Shown here: one piece after another, positions 18,703 to 60,010 of the stretch | Position numbering within the stretch: the first letter of the stretch is position 1 | Layout of the letters: each line of letters starts with the position of its first letter | Assembly: GCA_030606335.1 (NCBI GenBank) | Contig: JAUWGP010000003.1 | Span: 26,065 to 90,064, forward strand | Direction of reading: 5' to 3' | Length of the DNA: 64,000 bases | From: a candidate division WOR-3 bacterium | Lineage (GTDB): Bacteria; Hydrothermota; UBA3073 | Position numbers and translations under genes: made by a program | Notes under the pieces: model-generated | What the model was told of the DNA's origin: nothing | Seen by the model: only the letters and a program-made list of their open reading frames with translations | Databases searched by the model: none

Positions 18703-18725
18703 CCTTATACCCTAAATTATCTTAT

Positions 18726-20231: not shown

Positions 20232-20239
20232 GATATAAT

Positions 20240-20451
20240 ATGATAAAATCTAACCCTTTCACTCCAAAGTCTGGTTTGGAGCAGAAAATCTTTTTCAATA
20301 GGGAAGATGAGATAAAATTGCCGATATTGAGATAAAAAGTTTGAATGTTTATCTTCGTAGGTTGGTAGAGAAAGAAATCTTAATTGGTGTTAGGCGTGGC
20401 GAATATAAATTAAAAGACATTCTATTGTGTGAATACCTGAGAAGAAAATAA
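20240..20451 (+). pseudogene. degraded remnant of an AAA-type (PF01637-like) ATPase gene
   Basis: Frame A encodes MIKSNPFTPKSGLEQKIFFNREDEIKLPILR*, the characteristic NPF.P...FxxREDEI N-terminus of 'archaeal-type' ATPases. A second frame at 20353-20451 encodes LRRLVEKEILIGVRRGEYKLKDILLCEYLRRK*, a wHTH-like C-terminus. The body of the gene is missing. Confidence 0.3.
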
Positions 20452-20812
20452 CAAAAATTACAAATCAAGCCTAATGTTGTAATTTCTGTAATTTTGGATA
20501 TAGAATTCTTAGGGATCGTAGGGTCAAGTCTCAACATAAGACATTTTTATTGGCGAGGGAAGTTCGGTGGCGGGGTACTCCAACGAGAGCTGTAATTTGA
20601 GTGCATTACCTTGGTAATGCAAGTGGGCGGTAGCAAGCTATTGCAATTCTTAATCTCTAAGATAGATTTTATTTAATAAAAAGGAAATATTAATAGGGAT
20701 TACAATTAGAAAGATAAACTTCTTTTGGTAAGACTAATGGGGGTCAGTTCTTGGCACACTCCAAAGAAGTTTTAATAGCACTGTAGAAATTAATCAGTAT
20801 TAGGATATAGAT

Positions 20813-27420: not shown

Positions 27421-27660
27421 CTTGTCGTATATTCTCTCTATTGTAATGAGATTGCCACGCTCCTGTTAGTCGCTCGCAATGACAAATAAGTCATTAAATG
27501 GTAGGCGTAGACTTTATGCCTGCGAAGGAACGAATGAGATTGCTGCGCTCACTTCGTTCGCTCGCAATGACCGGGGTTGGTATCTGTCATTGCGAGGAGT
27601 CCGTCGTCCGTCAAGAAGTGCGACGGATTGACGGACAACGAAGCAATCTTATCACTTAGA
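27421..27660. repeat. composite dispersed repeat ('cattgcgag' family), copy C
   Basis: gagattgccacgc...gtcgctcgcaatgac, gaacgaatgagattgctgcgctcacttcgttcgctcgcaatgacc, gtcattgcgaggagtccgtcgtccgtcaagaagtgcgacggattgacggacaacgaagcaatc. Inverted relative to copy A. Confidence 0.6.
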
Positions 27661-27819: not shown

Positions 27820-29127
27820 ATGACTCTTATAGAAAACGCTAAAAAGGGTAAAATTACCTCAATTTTCAGGACAATAGCTAAGGAAGAGGGACAATTACCT
27901 GAATATATAAGAGAGGGTATATCAAATGGGACTATAGTAATCCCCTCTAATAGTAAAAACCCACCCAGGAAAGCCGTTGGCATAGGTAAGGGATTGCGGA
28001 CTAAAGTTAATGCAAATATAGGTACATCACCTGATATTGCTGATATAGAAACGGAGATTAAGAAGGCACGCATTGCTGATAAATATGGCTCAGATACAAT
28101 AATGGATCTATCAACTGGTGGTGATCTTTCTAATATTAGAAAGAAGATCAGAGAGGAATTTCCAGGTCCGCTTGGAACTGTTCCCATCTATGAGATAGCC
28201 TGTAGAAAGGCTCAAAAAGAAATAGATTTTAGAGATGCGGGTGAAGAGGAGATAATTGATATTATTGAGGAACATGCAAGAGATGGTGTCGATTTCGTAA
28301 CAGTGCACTGTGGGGTTACAAGAGGCGTTGTCGACCTACTCAAAAGCCATGGAAGAGTTATGGACATAGTATCTCGAGGGGGGTCTATTCTTGCTGCATG
28401 GATGGAATACAATAAGAAAGAAAACCCTTTATATACATATTTTGATAGACTTATTGAGATAGCAAGGGAATACGATCTGGTTCTTTCGCTCGGTGATGGA
28501 CTTCGTCCCGGCTCAATTATTGATTCGACAGACAAACCTCAGATAGAAGAAATGATAGTGCTTGGTAAATTAAGAGACAGAGCACTCAAAGCAGGTGTCC
28601 AGGTAATGATAGAGGGACCTGGACACATTCCAATTCATGAAGTAGAAATGAATATCAGGATAGAGAAAAGCATTTGCAAGGGTGCTCCATTTTATGTTCT
28701 TGGTCCAATTGTGACTGATATAGCACCCGGCTATGACCACATTACATCTGCAATCGGTGGTGCACTTGCAGCAGCCTGTGGTGCAGATTTCCTGTGTTAC
28801 GTTACTCCTGCAGAACATATTGGCCTACCTACAGTGGATGATGTAAAAGAAGGTGTAATTGCTGCAAGGATCGCTGCACATGCCGGGGATCTCGCCAAGG
28901 GGATAAGAGGAGCTTCCCAGATAGATAAAGAAATATCCATGGCAAGAAGGAGTCTTGACTGGAAAGAACAGAGAAAACTCGCCATAGACCCGGAAAGAAT
29001 TTCAGAAAAAAAATCAATAGAGACCTGTACAATGTGTGGTAATTATTGCGCAATAAAAATAACAGAACAGTACGTAACCAGTAAGATAGGTAAGAATGCA
29101 AAAAAAATTAAAAAGTCACAGAGATAA
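27820..29127 (+). CDS. thiC: phosphomethylpyrimidine synthase, short form
   Basis: 435 aa. ThiC core motifs including the C-terminal CTMCGNYC Fe-S cluster motif. Confidence 0.9.
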   Translation: MTLIENAKKGKITSIFRTIAKEEGQLPEYIREGISNGTIVIPSNSKNPPRKAVGIGKGLRTKVNANIGTSPDIADIETEIKKARIADKYGSDTIMDLSTGGDLSNIRKKIREEFPGPLGTVPIYEIACRKAQKEIDFRDAGEEEIIDIIEEHARDGVDFVTVHCGVTRGVVDLLKSHGRVMDIVSRGGSILAAWMEYNKKENPLYTYFDRLIEIAREYDLVLSLGDGLRPGSIIDSTDKPQIEEMIVLGKLRDRALKAGVQVMIEGPGHIPIHEVEMNIRIEKSICKGAPFYVLGPIVTDIAPGYDHITSAIGGALAAACGADFLCYVTPAEHIGLPTVDDVKEGVIAARIAAHAGDLAKGIRGASQIDKEISMARRSLDWKEQRKLAIDPERISEKKSIETCTMCGNYCAIKITEQYVTSKIGKNAKKIKKSQR

Positions 29128-43691: not shown

Positions 43692-45167
43692 TTATTTGCT
43701 AGTCTTCACAAATTTCACTGCCTTAATATAATCCTCAGAACATCTTACTCCAATAATTTTCTCTTTTAATCTCTTAATAATTTCTTCTTGTTTCATAAAA
43801 CCGAATTCTCCATCAATCTTATATCCTTCGGAGAGAATCTGCTGCATACTATTTTCGTATTCTTCAACAATATCATATGTACCCCTATATCTTATAATAA
43901 ACCACACCTCATCTAACTTAGTGATTCCCATGAGCGAATCAAGTTTATCTACACCAAGGTATGTATCCAACTTTGTACTTCCATAGAACCGAAATGGAAA
44001 TTCTGCTGTCATTACAATCGAATTATCGCTTGCTTCTTCTTCTACAGTTTCTACAATCTCTCTCCAGGGTACGATATATGCTTGATTGTGGAAATGCCTT
44101 ACCGTGTAGTAATTGAAAAGTCCATATAGATTACAGCAGATCAATAGAAAAAGGAGTGTATTACCAAATTTGGTTTCTTTTACACCTGCTGCTACAATAG
44201 TATAGGCAATCGGTGCAAGAAAAATTAGTCTGCTGGAAGAAAATGGAAAAAGTATTTGGGCAAATACAGTTGAAAGAGCAGTTGTACCAATAATAAGTGG
44301 AAGAATAAAAAAGGAAAAAGAGTATTTAGGATACCTCAGCATCCCCTTGAAGAATAGAAAATAGAATATCACTATAGTCGGTAGAGCAATAAAGAATTCC
44401 CATAGAAATATCGTCTCACCAATAGAGTAAGAGTATAGTGGATATAGCAATTTAAGGAAAAAATCTAAAGGAAGGTATGTTAAATTTCCTCCGATATGTA
44501 GAAAAAGAAGAACATAAATCCATGGAAGAAAGAGAAATACCACGATTGATTGCATAAATATCCATGTAGATAGACTGACTACCCTCTTTTCTTTCTTCTT
44601 GATAAGAAAATAAACGTTTTCTGCTACAAATAATATAACTCCTGGGTAAGCTGTATACAAGAGTAGAATATTGGACACACAGTAAAGCAATTTCCACCTT
44701 CTTTCAGGTCTCTTTATAATTTCGAGAAGTGATATTATAGACAAAACACCAAAAAACATCATAAGTGAGTAATATCTTCCCATTCGTGAATACATTACTA
44801 TGAATGGTGATGACATAAATAATAATAAGGATGAAATACCCAATTTACTCTTCTTGAAGTAGAAAAACATAAGAATGAGTGTTAACATAGAGAATACAAT
44901 GGAAGGGAATCTCAAAGCAAATTCACTTTGACCAAATGGAATCATCCAGAAATGAATAAAAATATAGTACATCGGGGAATGAATATCTATTACAAGGAGG
45001 TGTTTTAATATCTGTGATAACGGTTTTGATGCAACAATTATTGTACCTATCTCATCCCCCCAGAAGGCAAGGTTACCCAGTCTATAAATGAGTAACATGA
45101 AGAATACAATTATTAATAACCATTTATACCCCTCTATCTTATGAACCGATGATAAGAATTTATTCAT
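43692..45167 (-). CDS. GT-C fold membrane glycosyltransferase (ArnT/PMT-like, polyprenyl-phosphate-sugar dependent)
   Basis: About 11 TM helices. Acidic WGDE motif in the first extracytoplasmic loop. C-terminal soluble domain. Confidence 0.5.
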   Translation of the reverse strand: MNKFLSSVHKIEGYKWLLIIVFFMLLIYRLGNLAFWGDEIGTIIVASKPLSQILKHLLVIDIHSPMYYIFIHFWMIPFGQSEFALRFPSIVFSMLTLILMFFYFKKSKLGISSLLLFMSSPFIVMYSRMGRYYSLMMFFGVLSIISLLEIIKRPERRWKLLYCVSNILLLYTAYPGVILFVAENVYFLIKKKEKRVVSLSTWIFMQSIVVFLFLPWIYVLLFLHIGGNLTYLPLDFFLKLLYPLYSYSIGETIFLWEFFIALPTIVIFYFLFFKGMLRYPKYSFSFFILPLIIGTTALSTVFAQILFPFSSSRLIFLAPIAYTIVAAGVKETKFGNTLLFLLICCNLYGLFNYYTVRHFHNQAYIVPWREIVETVEEEASDNSIVMTAEFPFRFYGSTKLDTYLGVDKLDSLMGITKLDEVWFIIRYRGTYDIVEEYENSMQQILSEGYKIDGEFGFMKQEEIIKRLKEKIIGVRCSEDYIKAVKFVKTSK

Positions 45168-45179: not shown

Positions 45180-46619
45180 TTATTTCATATAATCCTTTGT
45201 ATTTCTTAGTAGGAATATGGAGATGCCATTGCATTCCTTTATCTTTTCATAGCCCATTTCTCTTAATCTAAAAAACTCTAAGTCTTCATCATCAATTACA
45301 TCTACTATTAACCGGGGTTTATAACGTTGTAAAAGATTAGGGATATCTTCATAGGTAATAAGGTGATATCTCTCCCTTAATCTTGGAGCCACATTCTCAC
45401 TTACGTCATAGTTCGGTATCGCAAACTCAGGAACAGTTTCTCTGTCTGCCAGAAATCCAAAATAGAATCCAAAGGAAACTACCTTGTCATCCTTTTCTGT
45501 AACTGCTTCAATAGCCCTGGTTACATCTCTTATATTTGAAATTATATATTTCTTCTGCCATTCTCTTACATTAGAGAAATACATAAGAGAGCACGGAATG
45601 TAGGATGTTATGTATAAGATAAGAAGCCATTTGCTCCATGTTTTTCTTTTTAGATAACCAATATATGGTACAAGTAAGAATAAAAGAAATGGATAAATCT
45701 CTGTCATATAGCCGAAATGCGTAGGAGTAAGTATGAAATAGTATACTATAAAAAGAACTACAGCACAAATTAATGCCAACAATTCCTCTCTTCTCATTTT
45801 TCTCCACTTAATAGCTATTGCAAGTAGTATAAAAAGCACAATATTTGATGGAAAAAAGACAACCTTGGCAAGAATTAGGAATCTGTGGGTTATAAACCAA
45901 TAAAATGAAGGGGTAGTTCTGTTGAAATGATATAAAAAGTTACAGAAAAGAAAACAATCCGTATATTTAAAAAAATAATACAATGATGGAATAATACCAA
46001 GAACAAAACCAGCAACTGTATAAAGTATCATCTTCCACTCTCGCCTAAAGAGAAGAAGAATAATCGTAATAATAAGTAATACAATAAATATTGAGCGAAA
46101 ACTCACTGAAAGACCAATACAAATACCAGAAAGCAAAGAATATATACACCTTCTTCTCTTCAGGGAAAAGGAAAATAAAATAAGAAATAGAATATTTAAT
46201 AAATTCACCCAGGCTCTTTGTGTTGCCTGGATGGAGTTGTAGAAAAGCACTGCGTTACCTGTCCAGAGTATACCCATATAAACGGTCTCCTTCTTAGACT
46301 TATTAATATAAAATGTATATAGAAGGAGGATAACACCTGAGATAAGAGCAATAAGGGAAGATGATATTCTGGCGAGAAAGAAATTAGACCAACCACCACC
46401 AGAAAAAGGCAGAAAGACTAAAGCTGAGAGCGGCATCTGAGGGAAGAAAAAATCTTTATATAAGTGCATTCCTCTCGATATTAGTCTTGCTGCGGGAAAA
46501 TAATAGCTCAATTCATCTGTGAAAACATTTTGTATAAAGACAAGAGCAATAAGAATACTACCACTTATAATACAGTATAATATAATAAATTTGGATATGC
46601 TATTTCTACTTTGTTTCAT
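45180..46619 (-). CDS. GT-C-like polytopic membrane glycosyltransferase, paralogue 1
   Basis: 479 aa. TDELSYY acidic motif after TM1. About 85% identical to the 46901-48331 product. Confidence 0.5.
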   Translation of the reverse strand: MKQSRNSISKFIILYCIISGSILIALVFIQNVFTDELSYYFPAARLISRGMHLYKDFFFPQMPLSALVFLPFSGGGWSNFFLARISSSLIALISGVILLLYTFYINKSKKETVYMGILWTGNAVLFYNSIQATQRAWVNLLNILFLILFSFSLKRRRCIYSLLSGICIGLSVSFRSIFIVLLIITIILLLFRREWKMILYTVAGFVLGIIPSLYYFFKYTDCFLFCNFLYHFNRTTPSFYWFITHRFLILAKVVFFPSNIVLFILLAIAIKWRKMRREELLALICAVVLFIVYYFILTPTHFGYMTEIYPFLLFLLVPYIGYLKRKTWSKWLLILYITSYIPCSLMYFSNVREWQKKYIISNIRDVTRAIEAVTEKDDKVVSFGFYFGFLADRETVPEFAIPNYDVSENVAPRLRERYHLITYEDIPNLLQRYKPRLIVDVIDDEDLEFFRLREMGYEKIKECNGISIFLLRNTKDYMK

Positions 46620-46639
46620 TAAAATCCCTTAAGGATTTT

Positions 46640-46760
46640 CTAATTTATTTCTATGTGTTTTAAGAAGTTGGTGGTGGGTCTAAGCTGTTTTCATAGCAAT
46701 CCTGTCCCAAGAAAAATACTATTTGACAAACCCTTTATCACTACGAGATAGGGTTTCTTT
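46640..46760 (-). pseudogene. degraded 3' fragment of the GT4 glycosyltransferase gene (duplication scar)
   Basis: The reverse complement reads ETLSRSDKGFVK*YFSWDRIAMKTA*, against the intact C-terminus ETLSHKGKKLVKEYFSWDRIAVKTAETYQQL of the 48342-49526 gene. Confidence 0.5.
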
Positions 46761-46900
46761 TTTATTTTTACCCTTTAATAAATGTATAAGAAAGTCAGTT
46801 CTGCAGCATTTTATCACTGATTGTATTAAAAATTAATTTTATTTACCTTTCTGGGTTCCTATGGAAAGTAAGTAAAATTTACAAACTTATCTTTTATATC

Positions 46901-48331
46901 TCAATCACCAACTAATAAAAGCGATATACCCCTGTAATCTCCTATTTTCTTATAACCTAATTCCTTTAACTTAAAGTATTCTAATTCTGTCTTATCAATC
47001 ACATTTACTATTAGCCTGGGTCTATAGCGTTGTAAAAGCTGCGGGATGTCCTCATAAGTAGTAAGATGATACCTTTCCCTCTGTTTTGGACTTATATCCT
47101 CGCTTATGTCGTGAAGATAAAAAGCAAGTTCTGAAACAGTTTTTCTTTTCGCCAGAAATCCAAAATAGAATCCAAAGGAAACTACCTTATCATCCTTTTC
47201 TGTAACTGTTTCAATAGCCCTGGTTACATCTCTTATATTTGAAATTGAATGCCCCTTTTGCCAATCTCTGATGTTAAAGGAATACATTAAAGAGCACGGT
47301 ATATATGATGCAATATAGACAATTAGAAGCCATTTACTCCATGTTTTTCTTCTTAGATAACAGATATAGGGTACAAGTAAGAATAAAAGAAATGGGTAGA
47401 CCTCAGTCATATAACCGAAATGTGTAGGGGTAAGTAAGAAATAGTAAACTATAAAAAGGACTGCAGCACAAATTAATGCTAACAATTCCTCTCTTTTTAT
47501 TTTTCTCCACTTAACAGCTATTGAAAGTAATATAAAAAGCACAATATTTGATGGAAAAAAGATAACCTTGGAAAGAATTAGAAATCTGTGGGTTACAAAC
47601 CAATAAAATGAAGGGGTAGTCCTATTAAAATGATATAACAAATTACAGAAAATAAAATTATCCGGATATTTAAAAAAGTAATATAATGAAGGAATGACAC
47701 CAAGAACAAAACCAGCAACTGTATATAGTATCATTTTCCACTCTCGCTTAAAGAGAAGAAGAACAATCGCAATGATTAACAGTATTACAAATATTGAGCG
47801 AAAACTCACTGAAAGACCAATACAAACTCCAGAAAGTAAAGAATATATACATTTTCTTCTCTTTAAGGAAAGGGAAAATAAAATAAGAAACAGAATATTC
47901 AGTAAATTCACCCAGGCTCTTTGTGTTGCCTGGATGGAGTTGTAGAAAAGCACTGCGTTACCACTCCACAGGACACCAATATAAATAGTATCTCTCTTAG
48001 ATTTATTAATATGAAAGGTATATAGAAGAAGGATAACACCTGATATAAGTGTAAGTATGGAAGAAGATACTCTGGCGAGAAAGAAATTTGTCCATCCACC
48101 ATTTGAAAAAGGCAGAAAGACTAAAGCTGAGAGTGGCATTTGATTAAAGAAAAAATCTTTATATAATTTCTTTCCTATTGCTATTAAAGATGCTGCAGGA
48201 ATATAAGTACTTAATTCATCCGTATAAACATTTTGAGTAAAGATAAGAGCGACAAGAATACCTCCACTTATGATGCAGAATAATATGATAATTTTAAATA
48301 TGCTATCCTGACTTCGCCTCATGAAAACCAT
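46901..48331 (-). CDS. GT-C-like polytopic membrane glycosyltransferase, paralogue 2
   Basis: 476 aa, collinear with paralogue 1; even the antisense ORF shadows match (46205-46399 and 47908-48102). Confidence 0.5.
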   Translation of the reverse strand: MVFMRRSQDSIFKIIILFCIISGGILVALIFTQNVYTDELSTYIPAASLIAIGKKLYKDFFFNQMPLSALVFLPFSNGGWTNFFLARVSSSILTLISGVILLLYTFHINKSKRDTIYIGVLWSGNAVLFYNSIQATQRAWVNLLNILFLILFSLSLKRRKCIYSLLSGVCIGLSVSFRSIFVILLIIAIVLLLFKREWKMILYTVAGFVLGVIPSLYYFFKYPDNFIFCNLLYHFNRTTPSFYWFVTHRFLILSKVIFFPSNIVLFILLSIAVKWRKIKREELLALICAAVLFIVYYFLLTPTHFGYMTEVYPFLLFLLVPYICYLRRKTWSKWLLIVYIASYIPCSLMYSFNIRDWQKGHSISNIRDVTRAIETVTEKDDKVVSFGFYFGFLAKRKTVSELAFYLHDISEDISPKQRERYHLTTYEDIPQLLQRYRPRLIVNVIDKTELEYFKLKELGYKKIGDYRGISLLLVGD

Positions 48332-48341: not shown

Positions 48342-49526
48342 TCAACTAACTACTGTGTGTTTTTTAACAAGTTGTTGGTAGGTTTCGGCTGTTTTTACAG
48401 CAATCCTGTCCCAGGAAAAATACTCTTTGACGAGCTTTTTACCCTTATGAGATAAAGTTTCTCTTAATTTCATGTCCTTCAACACATGTATAATCTTTTG
48501 TGCAATTTGCTCCTGATTTTGAGGGTCAATGAGCACTGCACTTCCTTCAATCAATCCAACGACATCCCTTACTGGACCAATATCTGATGCGATAACAGGA
48601 ACTCCAAATGCCATAGCTTCAATTAGCACTATCCCTTGAGTTTCGTAAAGTGTTGGGAAAACAAAAATACTCGCCTTTTTATATAACTCGTATATTTTCT
48701 GTCTTGGTAGGGGTCCAGTAAACTCTATATTTGAGGTTAGGTTGTTTTCCTTTATAAATTTCTGCAGTGAGTTAAAATAACCTTTTTCATCTACAGGTCC
48801 AGCGAAGATAAACATCGTATCAGGAACTTCTTTTAAAACACCTATAGATGCCCTTACTAAAGCTAACTGATTTTTTCTCCTGCAAATTCTTGCAGGGTAC
48901 ATCACAATATGTCTTTTTTCCCTGTTAGATTTATTATAATTAATATATTCCTTTATTTTTTCTACCTCTAATCCATAGTGTATCGAAGTAATTTTCAAAG
49001 AATTTAATCCAAAATGAGACACAAGTGTGTTCTTTACGCTTATAGTGGGGGTAAATATGTGGTCAATCCTCTTAAGTAGTATAGACTCTGCTATGTGCTT
49101 TATCCTGTTTAAAAGTGAGGGGTTGAGTATAAACTTAGTGTTATGAGTGGTATATAATATAACTATATGCCATTTGAAAATACTCTTTGCAATCAGTACA
49201 AACAAACCTGCAAATTGTGAGTGACTATGAATTATATCTACAGGCTTCTCTTTTAATAAGTAGTATAATTTAGGTATTGTACTATAGGCAAATGAGAGAA
49301 CCTGTAATAATGGGTGAACATCACATAGGGAGGGTATCTTTACCTCACAGAAAACAATTCCTGTTTTTCCTCTATCTATATTCGATTTTATATCGATTAT
49401 ATCAACACTATTTCCATATTTAACTAGCTTCTTAGAAAGTTCATATATTGCATTCTCTACGGCACCGACACCAATAGGTGGGATAGACATAATACCCGTA
49501 CCAATATGGACAATATTCATTCCCAT
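48342..49526 (-). CDS. GT4-family (group 1) glycosyltransferase
   Basis: GT-B C-terminal motif E...GIVLIEAMAFGVPVIASDIGPVRDVV; 394 aa. Confidence 0.8.
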   Translation of the reverse strand: MGMNIVHIGTGIMSIPPIGVGAVENAIYELSKKLVKYGNSVDIIDIKSNIDRGKTGIVFCEVKIPSLCDVHPLLQVLSFAYSTIPKLYYLLKEKPVDIIHSHSQFAGLFVLIAKSIFKWHIVILYTTHNTKFILNPSLLNRIKHIAESILLKRIDHIFTPTISVKNTLVSHFGLNSLKITSIHYGLEVEKIKEYINYNKSNREKRHIVMYPARICRRKNQLALVRASIGVLKEVPDTMFIFAGPVDEKGYFNSLQKFIKENNLTSNIEFTGPLPRQKIYELYKKASIFVFPTLYETQGIVLIEAMAFGVPVIASDIGPVRDVVGLIEGSAVLIDPQNQEQIAQKIIHVLKDMKLRETLSHKGKKLVKEYFSWDRIAVKTAETYQQLVKKHTVVS

Positions 49527-49592: not shown

Positions 49593-52500
49593 CTATCTGA
49601 TATATACAAGTTTAGATGTTTTAAGTTCGCCCTCTGTATCGAGAACAATAAAATAGACCCCATTTGCAACCTTGTTTCCGTTTTCACCTACTCCACTCCA
49701 TTTTAATGTATAAGTTCCACCCTCTCTGGGCTCGTCAAGAAGTGTCTTTATGACTCTGCCACATACATCATACACTTTTATCTTCACATGTTTAATAGAG
49801 GATATTTGATACCTTATATCAACTATTCCTCTCATGGGATTAGGATAAGGTGGAAAAATACAGTCTATATACGGAAAGTCCATAGTAACTTCTGTAATTT
49901 CAGGTATAACAAATCCGTAAAGTCCTGTGTTCCATCTATCATGTCTTGCTGAGCCCCATTCAATACTATCTCCCTCAACCTCCCATACGTATAAATAAGT
50001 TCCCTGATAGTTAGTCACCAGAAGTTCATTCATACCGTCGTCATCTATATCATCAATCACAGGAGACCTCTTTATGTTATGGTATGTCTGTACTGGAAAG
50101 CCCGGCGTGAATGAACCATCTGCCTCTATAGAATATACAGCGCCATCTGTTCCTCCAACAACCACCTCCATGTTACCATCACCATCAACATCGGCTATCA
50201 GGGGTGGAGATGCAGGGAGTGCATCTCTATGTCTCATCCTCAAGTGAACAGGCCAACCTGAAAGTAACATTCCTTCTTTATTCCATGCAGTAACCTGATC
50301 AAAACACACCATTACTATATCAGGTTCGCCATTACCTGTTACATCACCCACTGCAATACCAGGTCCCTCAGATGGAGGAGGAGAATATTCCTGTGGCCAT
50401 CCTGTTAGTGGTCTGCCAAACCTATTCAAAACCCACAACTTTTCTTCTGTAGCTGTAATAATCTCAAGTCCATCCATCTTTAAGTCTATATCTGCGATTG
50501 ACGGGTTCACTATGACATCAGCCTCAAGCCATACAGGAAAGCTGTCAATTACCTCTCCTTCAGGATTCCATACATAAAGGCTGTCTCCACCTGCAATTAT
50601 CTCAAGTGTGTCATCTCCATCTATATCGGCAATAGAAGGTGAAATTAAACTTGGGTTGACTCCAACATTAGAAAAAAGGTTCACACTCCCTGTATGCTCA
50701 ATTAAATATATATTTCCAGAAAAGGTGAGAACAATAATCTCAAGAAATCCATTGCCATATATATCTTGCAGAACAGGTGAACCAATAAGACCAACTCCTG
50801 CATCAGGTAGTAGTACAGGGAAACCCTGTTCAATCTGCCCCTCTCCATTAAAAACATATATTGAACAACATGAGGAAGCCCAAAATGGTGCAATTATAAT
50901 CTCCTCCTCTCCGTCTGCATCAATATCTCCTACAGCTGACCTGCCCCATACAGGATATTCTACATTAGCAAATTCTTCCTCATCTAAAAGCGTAGAACCA
51001 TCACAATGCCATCCATAAAGTCGACCATCATCACACCCACAAAAAACCTCTTTCCCGGTATGAGTTTTATCTATATCTGCGCAGACTACTACCCAGAAAG
51101 GCTTTTCCTTTGGTCCCTTCTTGGGCCATCCGGTTTTCATCACGGGATTTGTCTTGCCATAAATATGAGCTGATAGCCCACTTTCATTCATAAAGGAATC
51201 TATTGCACTTACTCTGTAGTAGTAGCCTGTCCATGGTAAAAGACCCTGATCGAGTAACATAGAATTTTCACTCTGTATAATTGAGTTTAATTTAATATAT
51301 CCAGTTTCTTCTACACCACTCCTGTAGATGTTGTATCCAATAGCATAATCTACAGGTTGCCAGAAAATTCTCATGCTTGTCTCACCTGGAAAGACATATA
51401 AACCCTCCGGAGGTAGTAAATTCCTTACTATAAAAGTATCCACCCATGTCCTGTCTAATCCATCTATCACCACAATACTAAAGATTGAATCACCTCCTGT
51501 ATAGGAAAATGCATCTTCTATTAGAAGGAGTGTATCGGGTTCAAATAAATCGATATTATATATACTATCAATTATATTGCTGGAGCTCAATGTTGCTGTC
51601 AGACTCTCTACCTCTCCAAATCCTGAATTCCTTAAAACAATTGACATAGAGAAGGTATCTGTTGATATTTCATTTATACTATGTCCATAGTGAAAAATCT
51701 CTGGATAATAAATATAAAGTAGGGTAGAATCCCTTGAACTCAATGTGTCATTATAATAAATATTAAAGGCAAGATATACTATAGGATCTTCCATCTCCTT
51801 GTTTATAAGAATGGTTGCAATAACTGTATCACTCTCACCTTGAGAGAGGTCCTTCATAATAAATAATGTATCTATCAGGTTGACAAGCGTGTCATTGGTA
51901 TAACCTTTTGCAGATATATTCCAGGCATCTGAACCACCACTATTCATAAACTCACATAAAAACGAAATAGAATCACCTGAAGATAAAATCTCAGGCGAGA
52001 AATCCTTAATTATAATATAAGGTTGCTCGGGTTCTACATACAGCTCACCCTCATAAGGTATATAATTATGTGCTGTCACAACAATCGATAGCATACCCTC
52101 TACCTCTGGTGTCAGCTCAAATGAGGCAACGCCGCTTTCATCTGTATATGCAGTGGCATATACATTCTCGTTTGATACACATATATAGGCACCTGAAAAA
52201 GGAAATTCATCATCGGTTACATATATATCAAATATCTGTTGTCCAACATCCACTGTGTCATCGTAGACTACAGATAATGTGTCAGGAAAATCCGTCCAGA
52301 GGTATATCTCAGGGTCTCCCAGATAATTAAGTGCATAGTTCTCCCATCTCCACCAGACCCCAGTTCCTCCAGTTATCTTGGATGCTGCATCTGCCTCTGC
52401 TGGAGAGAATAGAGAGTCGGTAAAAATAGCCTTAAAGAATGCTCTATTTATAGGTCTGGAACATTCGGGAAAGTCTGACCTTGTTGAGGCAATTATCCCA

Positions 52501-53987
52501 ATTCCACCGCCAAGGTTGCTCTCAATGTAATGTGCACAGAAGTTGTCTGAATCATAGGAATTTGTCCAACATGTTGTTAGATACATAAATCCAGATGGGT
52601 TTATCAGTGAATCCCAGTCACTTCTCCAGATAGGTGGCCATCTGGAGAGCATAACCCTTAGATCTTCGATGTACCCATGACATACAGCATACACCATATT
52701 ATAACCGGTTACGATTGAATCCAGAAATTCCTCTCTTGTGGGATATCCATAATACTCATACATCTTGCTAACAGTAAAATCATCTGGCAACTCATCTGCT
52801 ATATCCTCACAGTGTTCCATTCCATCTAAACCCCATTCTCCATTACCTGAGAAGAGCTCTGAACCTACAAGCATAATCTTCTTCTGATAGCCATATAGGG
52901 GAGATTTTTCGTATAAAAGGAGTTTTTCAACAAGACTCTCTGCTCCTTCCCTGGTTTGTACAGGTAATCTTCCTATAAATACATCATATCCCATATCGAC
53001 GTCATCCTCAGACTCGCCAAATATTCCATTGTCATTTGCATCCCAGTCTCCATCAAGACAGGCATAATACATATCAGTTGGTATCAGTTCACCTAAATTA
53101 TACTCTGCCTGAATGAATGCATACCTCACTGGTATTATATTTATACCTCCCCCAATTACTATATAACATAACCCCCACTTCTGGTACGCATCCTTTATAA
53201 AGTTTCTTATCTTCTCAGATACATCACATCCTGTATAGTATGACTCGATCCATTCCAGAGTCCTAATGGTCGACCTTACTCCCTTTCTTGATTTCCAGTA
53301 TATTAGCGGCATAAAGGATTCTTTCAGTGAATCGCTGGTTATAAGACATAGGTCTATCCTATCAGAGGTGTAACTTGGTAACTCTGTCTCGCTTTTCATT
53401 TTTAAAACTGAAAATCTTTCTTTACAATTCTTAGACCAATCACTCTCAAATATTGATAGAAACCTGTTAATTCTCTCTCTTGTGTAAATGCTTCTTTCTG
53501 GAGAGACAACGTATACTGGTTTATAACTGAATGAGAAATCAATATTCTGAATAAATGAAATACTGCTGTCTTCAGGATGATAAAGCAGTGGGTGAACTGC
53601 TATAGTAACTATTCTTTCACCAAAATATACATCCTCCCTTTTTATCTCAACTATAGAAGACGGATATATATCTGCACATTCTAATGAAATAAATGGTCCC
53701 TCTTCATTGTCAAGCCTTTTATATGGTTGAAAGGGATAGGGTATGAACTTGCCATCGAGTGATATCATCATTATATTTTCCAATCTTACTTTAGAGATTG
53801 CCATGCCATGCGGCATGACAAAATGAAGAAGTCTTTCAGGTAGTTCAGGTTGACCTACCTTCTCAGTTTTAGTACATCCACACATGGATATTCTATCGTA
53901 ACAACCCTGCTTAAGGATTGTTAAATCTCCTATATCGAAGGTCAGAGTGGTAGTAAATAATGAAATCGTTATGAAGATGCTTATCAT
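49593..53987 (-). CDS. C25 (gingipain-like) cysteine peptidase with Fn3 domain, FG-GAP/VCBS repeats and T9SS C-terminal sorting domain
   Basis: C25 core (LCLITSD...WKSRKG...IVIGGG...DMYYACLDGDWD...FIGRLPV); catalytic His (AVCHGY) and Cys (YLTTCWT); Fn3 (IFWQPVDYAIGYNIYRSG); repeated DIDADGEEEI / DVDGDGNMEV / DIDDDGMNEL FG-GAP units. C-terminus PYPNPM...KWSGVGENGNKVANGVYFIVLDTEGELKTSKLVYIR. Confidence 0.7.
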   Translation of the reverse strand: MISIFITISLFTTTLTFDIGDLTILKQGCYDRISMCGCTKTEKVGQPELPERLLHFVMPHGMAISKVRLENIMMISLDGKFIPYPFQPYKRLDNEEGPFISLECADIYPSSIVEIKREDVYFGERIVTIAVHPLLYHPEDSSISFIQNIDFSFSYKPVYVVSPERSIYTRERINRFLSIFESDWSKNCKERFSVLKMKSETELPSYTSDRIDLCLITSDSLKESFMPLIYWKSRKGVRSTIRTLEWIESYYTGCDVSEKIRNFIKDAYQKWGLCYIVIGGGINIIPVRYAFIQAEYNLGELIPTDMYYACLDGDWDANDNGIFGESEDDVDMGYDVFIGRLPVQTREGAESLVEKLLLYEKSPLYGYQKKIMLVGSELFSGNGEWGLDGMEHCEDIADELPDDFTVSKMYEYYGYPTREEFLDSIVTGYNMVYAVCHGYIEDLRVMLSRWPPIWRSDWDSLINPSGFMYLTTCWTNSYDSDNFCAHYIESNLGGGIGIIASTRSDFPECSRPINRAFFKAIFTDSLFSPAEADAASKITGGTGVWWRWENYALNYLGDPEIYLWTDFPDTLSVVYDDTVDVGQQIFDIYVTDDEFPFSGAYICVSNENVYATAYTDESGVASFELTPEVEGMLSIVVTAHNYIPYEGELYVEPEQPYIIIKDFSPEILSSGDSISFLCEFMNSGGSDAWNISAKGYTNDTLVNLIDTLFIMKDLSQGESDTVIATILINKEMEDPIVYLAFNIYYNDTLSSRDSTLLYIYYPEIFHYGHSINEISTDTFSMSIVLRNSGFGEVESLTATLSSSNIIDSIYNIDLFEPDTLLLIEDAFSYTGGDSIFSIVVIDGLDRTWVDTFIVRNLLPPEGLYVFPGETSMRIFWQPVDYAIGYNIYRSGVEETGYIKLNSIIQSENSMLLDQGLLPWTGYYYRVSAIDSFMNESGLSAHIYGKTNPVMKTGWPKKGPKEKPFWVVVCADIDKTHTGKEVFCGCDDGRLYGWHCDGSTLLDEEEFANVEYPVWGRSAVGDIDADGEEEIIIAPFWASSCCSIYVFNGEGQIEQGFPVLLPDAGVGLIGSPVLQDIYGNGFLEIIVLTFSGNIYLIEHTGSVNLFSNVGVNPSLISPSIADIDGDDTLEIIAGGDSLYVWNPEGEVIDSFPVWLEADVIVNPSIADIDLKMDGLEIITATEEKLWVLNRFGRPLTGWPQEYSPPPSEGPGIAVGDVTGNGEPDIVMVCFDQVTAWNKEGMLLSGWPVHLRMRHRDALPASPPLIADVDGDGNMEVVVGGTDGAVYSIEADGSFTPGFPVQTYHNIKRSPVIDDIDDDGMNELLVTNYQGTYLYVWEVEGDSIEWGSARHDRWNTGLYGFVIPEITEVTMDFPYIDCIFPPYPNPMRGIVDIRYQISSIKHVKIKVYDVCGRVIKTLLDEPREGGTYTLKWSGVGENGNKVANGVYFIVLDTEGELKTSKLVYIR

Positions 53988-54079
53988 AATAAAAAATTAG
54001 TTATTGGTTTACCCTGCCTGCCATATTTAATGTTTCACTTTATTACATTATGGCTTGTCCTGTAGCACAGTGTACAGGG

Positions 54080-54165
54080 TGAAATGCGAACTTGTGAGCT
54101 ATTTCATCAGGGTCATTAGTTTACCCTATGAAATGTGAACTCGTGAGCTATTTCATTGGGGTCAT
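54080..54165. repeat. tandem about 49-bp duplication, each unit carrying an ATGAAAT/ATTTCAT hairpin
   Basis: gtgaaatgcgaacttgtgagctatttcatcagggtcattagtttaccct followed by atgaaatgtgaactcgtgagctatttcattggggtcattgggctattcc. Confidence 0.5.
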
Positions 54166-55097
54166 TGGGCTATTCCCAACCTCCTTGGTAAATACATGGC
54201 AGCAAGGTCCACTGTTCTCTGACAGTTTAACCAACATCGATTACATCGGGTAAATGAACGAATCGCTTCTTTTGTCTTTCTATCTCTCCATATCTGTCCG
54301 AAACTTCTCTTATGTAGATTACCAAGCTTTATTTTCCTTGCCTCACACAGTTCAACATCACCATTTGGTTTTATTACCGGTCTAACATATATACTAAGGC
54401 AGGGAAGGTTTAACCTCCTATTTGCCCATAGAGAATAAAGGCTGTAATAATCTGAAGTAAACATATCCGATACATCATAGAGTTCTAATACTTCTCTTTC
54501 TATACCGAAATATTCAACAAAAGAGAAGTATCCAACACTGAGTCCAATATTGTGACTTTTGGTAAAATCAAGTACAAACTCCAAGTCCTCTTTTGTGTTC
54601 CATTTACTTATTGTATATTCAATCTCAATACTGCTGAACTCCTTAATTTCATCAACAATTTTCTCGACGTTCCTAAATGTATCTATACCCCTTATATACT
54701 TGTTGGTTTCAGGTTTTCCATCAAGTGAAACTGAGACATATTTCACCTTTTCGTCCTTTACAAGCGAAATCAGTTCATCTACTAAGATTCCGTTCGAAAA
54801 AACCCTTATATTTTTCCCTCTGAAAAGGGATACAATCTCTCTGCATTCAGGATGAAGGAGAAAATCACCACCTGTGATAATAAATTCCATATCATCTCCA
54901 ATTTCATCATCCGCTAATAGCATTTCAATTATAGACTTATCCAGGTCAATTTTTTCTACCATTCTCCATATATTACAGGTCCTACATCTCGATGTACATC
55001 TATTAGTTATATATATAGGCATGGAGAGAATTCGTCTTCTCCTTATCGAATAAATAAGCCTTGAGAGATTAAACGCTTTATTAAAAAATCTATCCAT
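54162..55097 (-). CDS. radical SAM enzyme with C-terminal SPASM/twitch-like Cys cluster
   Basis: CTSRCRTC (CxxxCxxC) near the N-terminus. C-terminal CEARK...CNRCWLNC cysteine cluster. The start may be the internal ATG at 55022. Confidence 0.75.
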   Translation of the reverse strand: MDRFFNKAFNLSRLIYSIRRRRILSMPIYITNRCTSRCRTCNIWRMVEKIDLDKSIIEMLLADDEIGDDMEFIITGGDFLLHPECREIVSLFRGKNIRVFSNGILVDELISLVKDEKVKYVSVSLDGKPETNKYIRGIDTFRNVEKIVDEIKEFSSIEIEYTISKWNTKEDLEFVLDFTKSHNIGLSVGYFSFVEYFGIEREVLELYDVSDMFTSDYYSLYSLWANRRLNLPCLSIYVRPVIKPNGDVELCEARKIKLGNLHKRSFGQIWRDRKTKEAIRSFTRCNRCWLNCQRTVDLAAMYLPRRLGIAQ

Positions 55098-55227
55098 TTA
55101 TAAAGCCAGATTAATATAAAATTCAGCTGTATTATAGTTATATTTAATGAACTTTTATGTAAATAATTATACCATACATAAAAAGAAATGTCAATAATTT
55201 AAAAATAAAAGACTGACCAAACATTCT

Positions 55228-56229
55228 TCAAAGATTTCCTATCAGAGATTTTAAAATTTTATAATAGCAATCCTTCGAACCAAAATATCTTGTGATAGAC
55301 CTTTTTCCAAAATCTATAAACACACCAGGTGCGTAATAAAAAAACCATGAAAGAATTTTTGCAGGCATAAAATTCTTATGAAACTCCCTAAAATATGGGT
55401 CTAAAAACGGTTTTTGGAATTTTAGATGTTGTTCTATCATCTTACCTGCCAATAATGCTGAAAGAACTCCAGAGTATATACCTGCTGCAGTAATTGGTGA
55501 GGCAAAAGCTCCTGCATCACCAATCAGAATCATATTTTTCTTTATCCTTATCCCTTCTCTCCAAATTGGGTAGCGATAGTGGTATACCTTTCCACATAGT
55601 TCAATCTCTAATTCTTCTCTCAGTTTTATTGCCCACCTTTTAGGGTCCTCAAACCCTCCAGCGCCAAAAGCAACTGTGCTTTTCTTTGGCCAGAACCATG
55701 TATATCCTGCTCCAGGTCCAATTGAAACTATAAAATCTTCAGCGCGAAGGGGTAATTCCCATTCAACAGTTTCAATCCATCGAGGATACTGGATACCTAT
55801 AGTTTTCCTCACTATGCTGAACGGTCCATCAGCACCTACAATAATTCTAGCTTCATATATAGAATTACCTGTATATACATAATTATCCTTGACCCTTCGA
55901 ACCATCTCAAAGACAACTTTGGCTCCAGCATCTGTTGCCATATCGAGCAGATAACAATCAAAATCTTCCCGTTTCACAGTAACTATTGGAGCAGCGAGTT
56001 TTAATTGCCAGCTTCTATTACCCTTTTTTAGAGTTAGATGGTCAAATCTACGCTCAAAAGGGAAATCACCTATCAGTTCACTCAGAATAAAGGGAATAGC
56101 TCCCGCACAGACCTTATACCTGGGGAATTTTCTCTTCTCAATTATCAGGACATCAAATCCTTTCGATGAAAGTAATCTACCCAATGTAGAACCTGAGGGT
56201 CCCCCACCAACAACTATTACATCGTACAT
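55228..56229 (-). CDS. FAD-dependent oxidoreductase, geranylgeranyl-reductase family
   Basis: YDVIVVGGGPSGSTLGRLLSSKGFDVLIIEKR dinucleotide fold with CAGAI; 333 aa, the typical GGR/FixC-like length. Confidence 0.7.
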   Translation of the reverse strand: MYDVIVVGGGPSGSTLGRLLSSKGFDVLIIEKRKFPRYKVCAGAIPFILSELIGDFPFERRFDHLTLKKGNRSWQLKLAAPIVTVKREDFDCYLLDMATDAGAKVVFEMVRRVKDNYVYTGNSIYEARIIVGADGPFSIVRKTIGIQYPRWIETVEWELPLRAEDFIVSIGPGAGYTWFWPKKSTVAFGAGGFEDPKRWAIKLREELEIELCGKVYHYRYPIWREGIRIKKNMILIGDAGAFASPITAAGIYSGVLSALLAGKMIEQHLKFQKPFLDPYFREFHKNFMPAKILSWFFYYAPGVFIDFGKRSITRYFGSKDCYYKILKSLIGNL

Positions 56230-56312
56230 ATAACCTTATTATATTATAAACAAATCGATTTATAAAAAAGTTACCAGGCAGGTTCCTATTTTTAAAGCTA
56301 AATATTTCCTTT

Positions 56313-56975
56313 TTAAGTTCTTCGGTGAGCCTTCAGGAATATATGCACCCCGAATCGACCACTTTTTATATTGAAGTATAAACTCTCATTTATATGTCTT
56401 ATGAATGGTATCCCAAGCGGTTTTGTATAAACTTTATCAACATTAAATCCAGCTTTTAAAAAGAGCGATAAAAGGCTTTTATGGTTGAACAACTGGATAT
56501 GAAGAGGGTCATATAGATAGTCATAGCCAGTAATAGCAGACTTAATTTTATGCAGAAATGCCCATCTATTGGGTGTAGAGACAACAATCCTCCCCTCCTT
56601 CTTGAGTAATCTCTTTATGCTGCGTAGTGTATTGAGAGGCTTGGGTAGATGTTCAACAACCTCTATCATTGTTACTGCATCATAGATATCCTTATCCATA
56701 TCTTTCAGCTTTATATTTTTAAATGATATGTCTGGATAGTTTGAAGATGCTATTTTAAGTGCCTTTTCATTTATATCTATCCCCTCTGGGACCGCTTCAT
56801 ATTTCTTTTCCAGGAGATAACAGAATTCCCCTGTTCCACATCCTACATCAAGTATCCTCTCCCCCTTCTTTGGCGAAAGGATTGTAATAATCTCCCTAAA
56901 CTCCCAATTATCGTAATCCTTAAGATGGAGTATGGCGTATCTATAGTCGTATTCCATAGTAAAATCAAAAATCAA
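56313..56975 (-). CDS. class I SAM-dependent methyltransferase
   Basis: Motif I ILDVGCGTGEF; motif post-I/II (GIDINEKALKIA; AVTMIEVVEHL). Confidence 0.75.
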   Translation of the reverse strand: MIFDFTMEYDYRYAILHLKDYDNWEFREIITILSPKKGERILDVGCGTGEFCYLLEKKYEAVPEGIDINEKALKIASSNYPDISFKNIKLKDMDKDIYDAVTMIEVVEHLPKPLNTLRSIKRLLKKEGRIVVSTPNRWAFLHKIKSAITGYDYLYDPLHIQLFNHKSLLSLFLKAGFNVDKVYTKPLGIPFIRHINESLYFNIKSGRFGVHIFLKAHRRT

Positions 56976-57099
56976 ATATTAAATATCAAAATTTTTAGCC
57001 ACAGATTACACAGATTCTCGATCTCACCTCTTTTTAAACAGGGACTTGAACGAGACATAAACGAGATTTTATCTAAAGAATAACGTGCAAGAGAGCCTA

Positions 57100-57440
57100 T
57101 GTTATTGCGAGTTAATTCCATCCTGGCTGGTGTCTTGTTAACTAACTTAGTTCACCTTTTTTCTTTGTCAAGATGCTATGGTAGTATCAGGTTCCTACCT
57201 ACGATTATGAGTCACAACGAGCCTGTCTACCGTCAGGTAGATAGGTTGCTCCAACCTCCAAAGGATACATTATTTTATAGAACACTAACTGTCATTGCGA
57301 GACTGAACGAAGTGAAGTCGTGGCAATCTCATCCTTTACTTCTAATATCTAAATGCGATTGCTTCACCTATGGTTCGCAATGACAAAAGTGAATGCCTGT
57401 CATTGCGAGCGAACAAAGTGAGCGTGGCAATCTCATTCTT
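57100..57440. repeat. composite dispersed repeat ('cattgcgag' family), copy D
   Basis: gttattgcgag..., tgtcattgcgagactgaacgaagtgaagtcgtggcaatctcat, gattgcttcacc...ttcgcaatgacaaaagtgaatgcctgtcattgcgagcgaacaaagtgagcgtggcaatctcat. The 94-aa ORF here is repeat-derived. Confidence 0.6.
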
Positions 57441-58839
57441 TATTACCTAAAACAACCCTTATATCCTCTTTTGTTATCCCCTTCATAATATAGAGTAAAA
57501 ATGTATATATAACTGCACCAATAAACACAAGCAGAATAACATTTAACGACCTCAAGAAGTAAAGAATGGCACACATTATTGCTGAAGCAAAAATCGGCTT
57601 TCCAAAAAATGTAAACAACCTAAACTTCACTACTCTATGAAAAACACGATACATAAGGTAGAACATAATTAACTCAGCACATATAGTTGCTAAAGCCGCT
57701 CCTATTATACCAAGTCTTGGTATCATAATCACATTCAGAATTATATTCGACACAGTGCCTGTCACCATTGCTACTGCATATCTCTTCTCCTGTCCTGTGC
57801 CAATTAACCCCTGTGTGTATATACTTCCTATCGTAGTAATTGCCAGGGTCCATATAAGTATCTGGAGGACTGGAGTTGAGGATGTGTAACCTTGTCCAAA
57901 TATAAACCTTATGATGGGCATTGCAAGCAAGGTCCCTCCGGCACATATTGGAATAACTACAGTTATAACTGCCCTGGCAGCCATAGAGAGTATCTCCTCA
58001 AGTTTCTTAATCGATTCCTTATAATATCTCGAAATAAGGGGAAGTATAACCATTGAAAAAACCCTATCCACAAGTAGAAGAAACATTAGAAGTTTATAGG
58101 CAACAGTATAAAGACCAACATCCGTTGTGCCTCTTATAAATCCAAGCATAGTAATATCGAAGTTAAAATATATCTGAGTCATCACAGTTCCTATTCCTAT
58201 AGGTAGGGCATGTTTCAATATTTCCCAGGTTCTGATTTCCAATCTCGGACCAACGACCTTCAGCTCACTTCTTCTTCGCACCATTAAACCGAGATATAGA
58301 GCCGCCACTGCACTTCCAGTAAACCAGAGAATCGGTACAAGATATATATTACCCGTACTTCTGACAAATAAAAGCACCAGAAATAGATACGAACCATATG
58401 ACATTATCATTGATGTACCTATGTTTCTCATCTCCTCGATTCCTCGGAAAAACCACTCAAGGGATAATGCGTATGGAAAGACAGAAAGGCAATAGAGGAT
58501 TATAAGCAGCCTCATATCCATCATGCCTTTGATAAGGAAGGTTAATATTGTAATAATTGTAAAGGCGGTTGCTGCAAGTAAAAATTTTAAGGGAATTATT
58601 TTAGTTATGTAGTCTTTTGAAAGGAGGGGTGCCTTTGCAATCTCTCTTGTGCCAATAGTTGATAAACCGAGGTCAGTAAAAATGAGTGCATAACCGAGGA
58701 ATGTGAAGGCAAAACTTAATGCGCCAAATCCTGCGACTCCCAGCACTCTCGCAAGCCAGATTGTAGCAAAAAAACCCAGGAGACGAGATAAAACATCTCC
58801 AGAGAATACAAATAGAATGTTCTTTGCAATTCTTCTCAC
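57433..58839 (-). CDS. MOP-superfamily polysaccharide/oligosaccharide flippase (Wzx-like)
   Basis: About 12-14 TM helices; N-terminus KNILFVFSGDVLSRLLGFFATIWLARVLGVAGFGALSFAF is the Polysacc_synt pattern. Confidence 0.75.
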   Translation of the reverse strand: MRRIAKNILFVFSGDVLSRLLGFFATIWLARVLGVAGFGALSFAFTFLGYALIFTDLGLSTIGTREIAKAPLLSKDYITKIIPLKFLLAATAFTIITILTFLIKGMMDMRLLIILYCLSVFPYALSLEWFFRGIEEMRNIGTSMIMSYGSYLFLVLLFVRSTGNIYLVPILWFTGSAVAALYLGLMVRRRSELKVVGPRLEIRTWEILKHALPIGIGTVMTQIYFNFDITMLGFIRGTTDVGLYTVAYKLLMFLLLVDRVFSMVILPLISRYYKESIKKLEEILSMAARAVITVVIPICAGGTLLAMPIIRFIFGQGYTSSTPVLQILIWTLAITTIGSIYTQGLIGTGQEKRYAVAMVTGTVSNIILNVIMIPRLGIIGAALATICAELIMFYLMYRVFHRVVKFRLFTFFGKPIFASAIMCAILYFLRSLNVILLVFIGAVIYTFLLYIMKGITKEDIRVVLGNKE

Positions 58840-59754: not shown

Positions 59755-60010
59755 TCTTAAACGCAGATTACGCAGATATTTACTCTTAAACGCAGATTGC
59801 ACGGATTACACAGATTTCCACAGACTAAAATAATCTCAAATTATGTGTTAAGAAACCATTCACCCCGTGAAATAATTTATTTCACAGGGCAGGGATTATC
59901 ACAAGATACAAATCATTAAGTTATTTCCAAGCTTGTTCTTTAATTACTTAATTACCCAATAACCCAATTACCTTTTTTGATATAATCAGTAAAATCCGTG
60001 AAATCTGTGG
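59755..60010. repeat. CGCAGATT/CACAGATT-type repeat block with inverted ends (MITE-like)
   Basis: ctcttaaacgcagattacgcagat / ctcttaaacgcagattgcacggattacacagatttccacag at the left end; inverted aatccgtgaaatctgtggc at 59990-60010. A related tagccacagattacacagatt sits at 56990. Confidence 0.45.

Follow-up and report, generated by a model that had tools for sequence, protein, structure and literature searches.

The DNA analyzed here, a stretch of 64,000 nucleotides from a candidate division WOR-3 bacterium (contig JAUWGP010000003.1; the whole stretch is referred to as the window), carries on its minus strand three open reading frames (ORFs) within positions 54162-56975, which encode a radical S-adenosylmethionine (SAM) enzyme (rSAM), a short flavin adenine dinucleotide (FAD) flavoprotein of the geranylgeranyl reductase (GGR) family, and a class I SAM-dependent methyltransferase (MT). 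With moderate confidence, our analysis assigns them as mutually independent, apparently separately acquired genes with a tailoring or accessory role in a cell-envelope glycan locus, which constitute neither a system for ribosomally made peptides that undergo post-translational modification (RiPPs) nor a fixed three-enzyme pathway. A preliminary description of the window had recognized an rSAM, an FAD oxidoreductase and a SAM-methyltransferase here, which the Pfam matches and the ORF limits, exactly those given before, confirm. Its suggestion of a lipid- or glycan-tailoring set for the adjacent glycosylation genes is partly supported, and better so than its alternative of a hidden precursor peptide, by rSAM relatives in glycan clusters and in fusions with glycosyltransferases, by the similarity of the rSAM fold to BlsE, by the relatives of the MT and by the identity of the GGR, while the substrates themselves stay predictions. 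All parts are members of known superfamilies, but the rSAM clade is rare and uncharacterized: literature searches on rSAM enzymes in polysaccharide and nucleotide-sugar pathways, and on isoprenoid and geranylgeranyl enzymes in WOR-3/Stahlbacteria, gave no description of it. A word-indexed search of 5.8 billion clusters yielded 23 real homologs. When 1.84 billion representatives were searched exhaustively with a profile, 108 matched at E<=1e-30, about 70 of which score as full family members.

What kind of radical SAM enzyme is encoded here? The 311-residue protein belongs to the superfamily by motif, by its Pfam match (Radical_SAM, PF04055, 52 bits, the cut-off being 29.5) and by a predicted fold resembling dozens of rSAM structures. 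In alignments of 23 close and of 50 diverse relatives, the CX3CX2C motif of the SAM cluster (C34, C38 and C41) is invariant. Invariant too are G76 and G77 of the GGE-type motif for SAM binding, followed at position 78 by glutamate in at least 90% of the family, where the window protein reads GGD. The C-terminal domain had been labeled SPASM, a subfamily defined by a seven-cysteine pattern, CX9-15GX4C...CX2CX5CX3C...C, and two auxiliary [4Fe-4S] clusters. The C-terminal cysteine cluster is real, and since the Pfam SPASM model extends to Twitch-like sequences as well, it still gives a match of 34 bits. However, the only auxiliary cysteines invariant among 50 representatives are C233, C251, C285 and C288, spaced C233-X12-G246-X4-C251 and then C285-X2-C288, while C292 is kept in the WOR-3 clade and lost in many other family members. 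The family thus departs from the seven-cysteine pattern and agrees, at the level of sequence patterns, with the four cysteines of Twitch domains (C-X~17-C, then CX2C), so that the domain is predicted to bind a single auxiliary cluster in a BtrN-like Twitch arrangement and not to be a full SPASM domain. BtrN, the Twitch dehydrogenase of butirosin biosynthesis (PDB 4m7s), has one auxiliary cluster with two cysteines ~17-18 residues apart followed by CX2C; it oxidizes a carbohydrate-like secondary alcohol and thereby feeds a DegT-type aminotransferase. As to a housekeeping role in heme or quinone synthesis, raised earlier as the finding that would overturn a tailoring function, neither the window protein nor 49 further family members reach the cut-off of any curated NCBIfam family, so that rSAM is not placed in such a subgroup. 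Against the heme and heme d1 (NirJ, AhbC, AhbD) and MoaA families, rSAM scores ~35-44 bits where the cut-offs are 231-650, and the best E-values of the 50 proteins are 1e-13 to 1e-16.

The substrate class can be approached from the fold and from the genomic settings of the family. The AlphaFold2 model of rSAM (predicted local distance difference test, pLDDT, 89.9) matches BlsE, a sugar-nucleoside decarboxylase (PDB 7vob), with a score of 24.1, clearly ahead of SuiB (20.3), SkfB (20.0), MoaA (18.6), anSME (18.2), DesII (17.0), GDGT-MAS (16.8) and BtrN (15.5). BlsE differs in that it shares 14% identity, is matched by the family profile in the N-terminal core only (29 bits), and acts as a cytosylglucuronate decarboxylase in the pathway of a nucleoside antibiotic, blasticidin S, rather than in the context of an envelope glycan. 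Homologs at 35-48% identity lie among sugar-pathway genes in Fervidobacterium, in a gammaproteobacterial metagenome-assembled genome and in several metagenomic lineages, their partners being family 2 glycosyltransferases (GT2), DegT, PglD-like acetyltransferases, RmlA/RmlC-like and polysaccharide-deacetylase-like proteins, and MTs. The Fervidobacterium-type loci follow the order GT2, PglD-like acetyltransferase, rSAM, class I MT and DegT aminotransferase, then an RmlA-like (L011) or RmlC-like protein (L037). Other lineages carry two or three rSAM paralogs amid several GT2 genes, together with DegT, a GFO/IDH/MocA oxidoreductase, a deacetylase-like protein, an MT and a B12-rSAM. Even more distant relatives are single polypeptides with an N-terminal GT2, an rSAM/SPASM unit and a second rSAM domain. 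Such fusions, P0262 (1141 aa) and P0274 (1167 aa) among them, act as a natural Rosetta stone that connects radical SAM chemistry with glycosyl transfer. Because of these glycan settings and the fold match to BlsE, a carbohydrate is favored over a peptide as the substrate. Thus, the evidence points to a carbohydrate-modifying enzyme, its specific reaction being a matter of prediction. For the distant clade, by analogy, a BtrN-like oxidation that would feed the DegT aminotransferase is attractive, given the common one-auxiliary-cluster cysteine pattern and the adjoining DegT genes; the window has no DegT gene. Some of these clusters also show an unusual association with aminolevulinate-pathway genes: hemA (glutamyl-tRNA reductase) and a HemL-type class-III aminotransferase stand amid GT2, DegT and rSAM in L024, L026 and L027 (~3.9-8.5 kb, 16-17 kb), and hemB/ALAD (porphobilinogen synthase) is found in the glycan clusters of L003-L005, which carry distant rSAM paralogs.

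Could rSAM act on a peptide instead? Its rSAM/SPASM architecture, top NCBIfam and PDB sequence matches that include the ACGX system, ScmE and SkfB, and the presence of small ORFs in the flanking gaps make a small unannotated precursor conceivable. We listed all ORFs of at least 20 aa in 53900-57450 and aligned both gaps with orthologous loci. Neither 53988-54161 nor 55098-55227, the two gaps in which leader-like short ORFs had been proposed for a search, contains a conserved coding small ORF by this alignment. What is conserved is a promoter: the sole block of the GGR-rSAM gap kept between the window lineage and the ~65% identical L041 is the rSAM promoter, a 12/12 consensus match, and the 26-aa ORF at 55144-55224 overlaps it and is not conserved in L041. 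Nearly all WOR-3/Stahlbacteria rSAM orthologs have a strong TTGACA-17-(TG)TATAAT promoter 60-90 bp before the start, with equivalents of the form TTGACA...TGGTATAAT upstream of those in L016, L017, L020, L021 and L022. By this conservation, rSAM would have a transcription start of its own. In L041 (2861-3895, P0008), the database places the start of the rSAM ortholog inside the conserved promoter, at an ATG within TTGACATTTATTTTTATATG, and thereby adds ~33 spurious residues to the N-terminus; in the alignment, the true start corresponds to Met1 of the window protein. On the other side of the gene, the rSAM-C25 spacer of the window contains two copies of ATGAAATAGCTCAC 49 bp apart; in other lineages (L010, L016, L041) the spacer is only 17-65 bp long. 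Two direct copies of a ~45-bp unit containing ATGAAATAGCTCAC occupy 54094-54156; they are present in L008, a contig nearly identical to the window (96-98% amino acid identity), and absent in other lineages. In the structural model, just one N-terminal helix precedes the rSAM core, which starts at residue 24, so that there is no room for a RiPP recognition element (RRE) or another leader-recognition domain. Every RiPP-family score is far below its cut-off, and a set of transporter, protease or immunity genes such as usually marks RiPP clusters is not seen near rSAM. With neither an adjacent precursor gene nor the usual N-terminal RRE at this locus, we consider a RiPP system very improbable. A 53-aa ORF of the L003/L004 clusters, viewed as a possible peptide substrate, is unremarkable in sequence.

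A peptide substrate of a different sort would be the large C25-peptidase protein with a C-terminal sorting domain of the type IX secretion system (T9SS), whose gene follows rSAM. Since the gaps are 17-65 bp where it does so, the two genes are probably co-transcribed. In four WOR-3 lineages (L010, L016, L041 and the window) rSAM stands directly before this giant gene and has the conserved promoter upstream, and among PDB sequences, where both the single protein and the family profile find only weak matches, the profile hits the peptide-modifying SkfB (49 bits) and CteB (35) best, before BlsE. Thus, rSAM might be a maturase of this giant protein, much as anSME alters a residue of secreted sulfatases, with MT and GGR as unrelated neighbors. 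We regard this as unlikely. At least five other WOR-3/Stahlbacteria loci carry rSAM without an adjoining C25 gene, the wider family resides amid glycan clusters and not beside large secreted proteins, and BlsE is clearly the better fold match. Moreover, the SPASM maturases SkfB, CteB, anSME and PqqE have seven conserved auxiliary cysteines where the rSAM family has four, in the pattern of one auxiliary cluster, and they differ further from rSAM in that the latter has no peptide- or leader-binding domain and no conserved precursor ORF, and is surrounded by glycan genes.

The MT is a class I enzyme by its Methyltransf_23 match (93.7 bits, cut-off 27) and its SAM motif VGCGTG. It reaches no curated NCBIfam equivalog, and with 62 bits against UbiG (cut-off 103), 49 against UbiE (216) and 39-40 against MenG (235-420) it is not assigned to the quinone methyltransferases. 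Its start is probably the ATG at 56957, where homology with L008 begins; the TTG at 56975 is doubtful. Its orthologs form a small WOR-3 clade of at least 59% identity, beyond which only generic similarity below 40% is found. In L047 the MT gene overlaps wzx, and in L048 it comes after wzx, with both GGR and rSAM missing. Beyond the clade, the two closest relatives that we examined (L049, L050) both belong to glycan clusters, one inside a Wzy/GT2/GT4/Bac_transf cluster and the other overlapping a DegT gene. The MT is thus likely to be a sugar or glycan methyltransferase. It resembles the class I sugar methyltransferases of O-antigen and capsule loci (Methyltransf_23/11) in fold family, in its coupling to wzx and in having relatives in glycan clusters, but differs from them in falling into no curated equivalog.

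Among the NCBIfam models, the flavoprotein scores best against TIGR02032, the family of geranylgeranyl reductases (134 bits, E 7.6e-39). Invariant among 37 relatives are GxGxxG, PRxKxCxG (including C41), RxxFD, GADG, GYxWxxP and GD. The hallmarks of GGRs, namely GxGxxG, a catalytic Cys, YxWxFP, RxxFD and LxGD (PMC10821996), are completely represented, with YTWFWP as the one variation, and the top fold matches of the AlphaFold2 model (pLDDT 93.4) are two archaeal GGR structures, TaGGR (3oz2) and SaGGR (3atq). By motifs and fold, the protein is therefore a GGR-family member, and it groups with a small clade of short paralogs of ~333-360 aa. It is ~60 residues shorter than canonical GGRs, has YxWxWP instead of YxWxFP, and stems from a bacterial host. 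GGR paralogs that saturate glycosyl-carrier polyprenols include the Haloferax volcanii GGR, acting on dolichol phosphate, and the mycobacterial HepR, acting on heptaprenyl diphosphate (PMC10821996). As Wzx and the three neighboring GT-C-type glycosyltransferases depend on polyprenyl-phosphate carriers, saturation of the carrier is the most economical guess, and by analogy the flavoprotein is a probable polyprenyl reductase.

The identity of the flavoprotein as a GGR could also be accommodated in a single isoprenoid-lipid pathway, in which one lipid, be it a polyprenyl, a quinone or an ether lipid of the archaeal type, is saturated by GGR, methylated by MT and modified by rSAM, comparable to MenJ and MenG or to archaeal GGR and rSAM steps. 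In line with this, the MT is weakly UbiG/UbiE-like, homologs of GGGPS and DGGGPS are widespread in the phyla of the Fibrobacteres-Chlorobi-Bacteroidetes (FCB) group (PMC6431249), and the trio is kept at ~65% identity in a second lineage. Such a pathway is nevertheless improbable in our view: rSAM, MT and GGR occur separately in related genomes, the UbiG, UbiE and MenG scores of the MT are far below the cut-offs, the relatives of the MT are found in glycan clusters and those of rSAM both there and in GT2 fusions, and no isoprenoid or quinone synthesis genes were found elsewhere in the 64-kb window. Alternatively, the juxtaposition might be fortuitous, a GGR-like gene for the general saturation of membrane isoprenoids having landed in a variable hotspot after wzx while being functionally unconnected with the glycan genes. 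Relatives from the GGR clade at 41-56% identity do occur in unrelated settings, beside a canonical GGR and riboflavin genes (L043), isolated (L045), or next to an LPG_synthase_TM protein and subunits for Fe-S electron transfer (L046), and the region shows rearrangement and repeat insertion. We deem this unlikely, however, since the adjacency of MT and GGR is kept in three or more contigs of distinct sequence (window/L008, L041/42 and, apparently, a 2.1-kb contig) and the locus encodes many enzymes that require polyprenyl-phosphate carriers.

Do the three genes form one unit, as had been supposed? Weak support comes from the order Wzx-MT-GGR-rSAM, which occurs in only two WOR-3 lineages (window/L008 and L041/42), in the second at ~65% identity to the window and continuing into the C25 gene; a further contig, of 2.1 kb, appears to carry MT and GGR together (P0029 and P0155). 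However, each gene is also found without the others. Partial sets are Wzx-rSAM (L019, with a gap of 108 bp) and Wzx-MT (L047, L048); GGR occurs alone in L043-L046, and rSAM in L001, L013, L017, L018 and L020, where it lies between a MacB-type ABC transporter and a convergent rbfA-infB-nusA. The settings of the WOR-3/Stahlbacteria rSAM orthologs, which are 63-82% identical, are accordingly varied. With this scattered distribution and a separate rSAM promoter, a conserved three-gene operon is not apparent. The synteny LptB-FabD-Wzx, by comparison, extends over L008, L019, L041/42, L047 and L048. The genes are best described not as a fixed module or a dedicated three-step pathway, but as occupants of a variable hotspot after LptB-FabD-Wzx that gathers accessory glycan genes.

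Several points weigh against the assignment of the three genes to a glycan locus. The score of the flavoprotein stays below the TIGR02032 cut-off of 158.8, and other members of its clade are found in contexts unrelated to glycans. For rSAM, the best PDB sequence-profile match is a RiPP maturase, SkfB, and many WOR-3 genomes have the gene beside unrelated neighbors such as the MacB-type ABC transporter and rbfA, making the context thin for the subclade. The partners of the distant relatives, that is DegT, the PglD-like acetyltransferase, the deacetylase-like protein, the B12-rSAM and uncharacterized 300-aa proteins, are absent from the 64-kb window. Finally, the substrates of all three enzymes are inferred.

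If the genes are indeed accessory to glycan synthesis, the following scheme can be proposed. rSAM would abstract a hydrogen from a nucleotide-linked, lipid-linked or polymeric sugar and catalyze an oxidation, decarboxylation or epimerization, like BtrN, BlsE or DesII, with the auxiliary cluster taking up the electron. The MT would methylate a sugar of the same glycan before it is flipped by Wzx. The flavoprotein would saturate polyprenyl double bonds with the help of its conserved Cys41 and of FAD in the reduced form, its most plausible target being the polyprenyl-phosphate carrier that Wzx and the GT-C enzymes use. In evolutionary terms, some of the WOR-3 lineages may have gained MT and GGR together, by insertion of a cassette between wzx and rSAM.

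The surroundings of the three genes are compiled in Table 1. On the same strand, the locus reads LptB-FabD-Wzx-[MT-GGR]-rSAM-C25/T9SS protein-GT4-three GT-C, the first three lying upstream and the C25/T9SS protein, the GT4 and the three GT-C-type proteins downstream. The sugar donors of GT-C enzymes are polyprenyl-phosphate-linked. The tandem GT87-like paralogs (45180-48331; 476 and 479 aa), both multi-pass membrane proteins, are ~77-80% identical by cross-hits, only one of them reaching the GT87 Pfam cut-off, and the adjoining PMT_2-type protein makes three GT-C-like proteins in a row. The rest of the window comprises housekeeping genes, a type I restriction-modification system, Fic, PEPCK, ThiC and similar genes.

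Table 1. Features of the trio, its neighbors and the restriction-modification region in the window
Feature	Position	Strand	Remarks
Radical SAM enzyme (rSAM)	54162-55097	-	311 aa; Pfam Radical_SAM 52 bits, SPASM 34 bits, both above cut-off
Sigma-70-type promoter of rSAM gene	55166-55194	-	TTGACA-17-TATAAT with extended -10 TG
Short GGR-family FAD flavoprotein	55228-56229	-	333 aa; Pfam FAD_binding_3 52 bits
Class I SAM-dependent methyltransferase (MT)	56313-56957	-	Methyltransf_23 93.7 bits; listed ORF of 220 aa, to TTG at 56975
Spacer with ~400 bp of palindromic repeat elements	56976-57432		repeats absent in near-identical contig L008 (alignment)
Wzx-type (MOP family) polysaccharide flippase	57433-58839	-	Polysacc_synt 122 bits; conserved upstream neighbor
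rSAM-to-C25 spacer	53988-54161		two local direct repeats; without conserved ORF
C25-peptidase / FG-GAP / T9SS C-terminal-sorting-domain protein	49593-53987	-	1464 aa; Peptidase_C25 146 bits, Por_Secre_tail
GT4 glycosyltransferase	48342-49526	-	Pfam
Two paralogous GT87-like GT-C membrane proteins	46901-48331, 45180-46619	-	Pfam; paralogy from cross-hits
PMT_2 GT-C protein	43692-45167	-	Pfam
hsdR	10785-13133
RadC-like	13123-14034
DUF4062/HATPase_c_4 protein	14051-15526		followed by two ORFs without Pfam match
hsdS	16439-17581
hsdM	18657-20231
Fic/DOC protein	20813-21859

A palindromic repeat family with the core TCGCAATGACA / GAGATTGCCACG occurs 10 times in the window, where 0.64 occurrences are expected, in three intergenic clusters (3984-4188, 27474-27595 and 57100-57408). 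The cluster between wzx and MT is an insertion of ~400 bp relative to L008, and it yields spurious small ORFs that mirror each other on the two strands, such as 57342-57416 (minus) and 57353-57421 (plus). Upstream of FabD-Wzx, the LptB-FabD gap contains at 59861-59891 a hairpin with a 14-bp stem, CCCTGTGAAATAAATTATTTCACGGGG, flanked by TTGTATCTTGTGATAAT... and ...TGAATGGTTTCTTAAC. Together with its flanks it recurs nearly base for base in L001 and L013, where it directly precedes the rSAM gene at a distance of ~60-100 bp from the start. It might terminate transcription of the gene before it or serve as a leader or regulatory element common to these loci, and it matches no Rfam family. A gathering-threshold scan with Rfam and a tRNA scan over the whole window returned no RNA family and no tRNA gene. 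No thiamine pyrophosphate riboswitch was detected for the ThiC gene (27820-29127), the upstream region of which holds a palindromic repeat cluster. At 10785-21859, the type I restriction-modification genes are interrupted by other genes.

What would the locus mean for the biology of these organisms? Few sugar-acting rSAM enzymes have been characterized, and those met here (BlsE, BtrN, DesII and AprD4) come from antibiotic pathways. As a tentative proposal, which we hold to be possible rather than probable, rSAM represents a previously unrecognized one-auxiliary-cluster clade that modifies nucleotide-sugars or nascent glycans for envelope polysaccharides in anaerobic bacteria and archaea, without oxygen or NAD, and is paired here with a bacterial GGR paralog making a partly saturated, dolichol-like polyprenyl-phosphate carrier. 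Should the rSAM and the GGR reading both fail, the locus would be no more than a common, variable cluster of glycan genes. If they are true, the recurrence of the clade in envelope-glycan loci of anaerobes, and its occasional fusion to a glycosyltransferase, would point to a part of radical chemistry in ordinary surface-polysaccharide biosynthesis, and rSAM, with its 311 aa, would provide a compact target for enzymology. Likewise, a GGR acting on the carrier lipid of the glycan would add a bacterial phylum without cultured members to the archaea and mycobacteria, for which alone dolichol-like saturation of the carrier has been documented so far.

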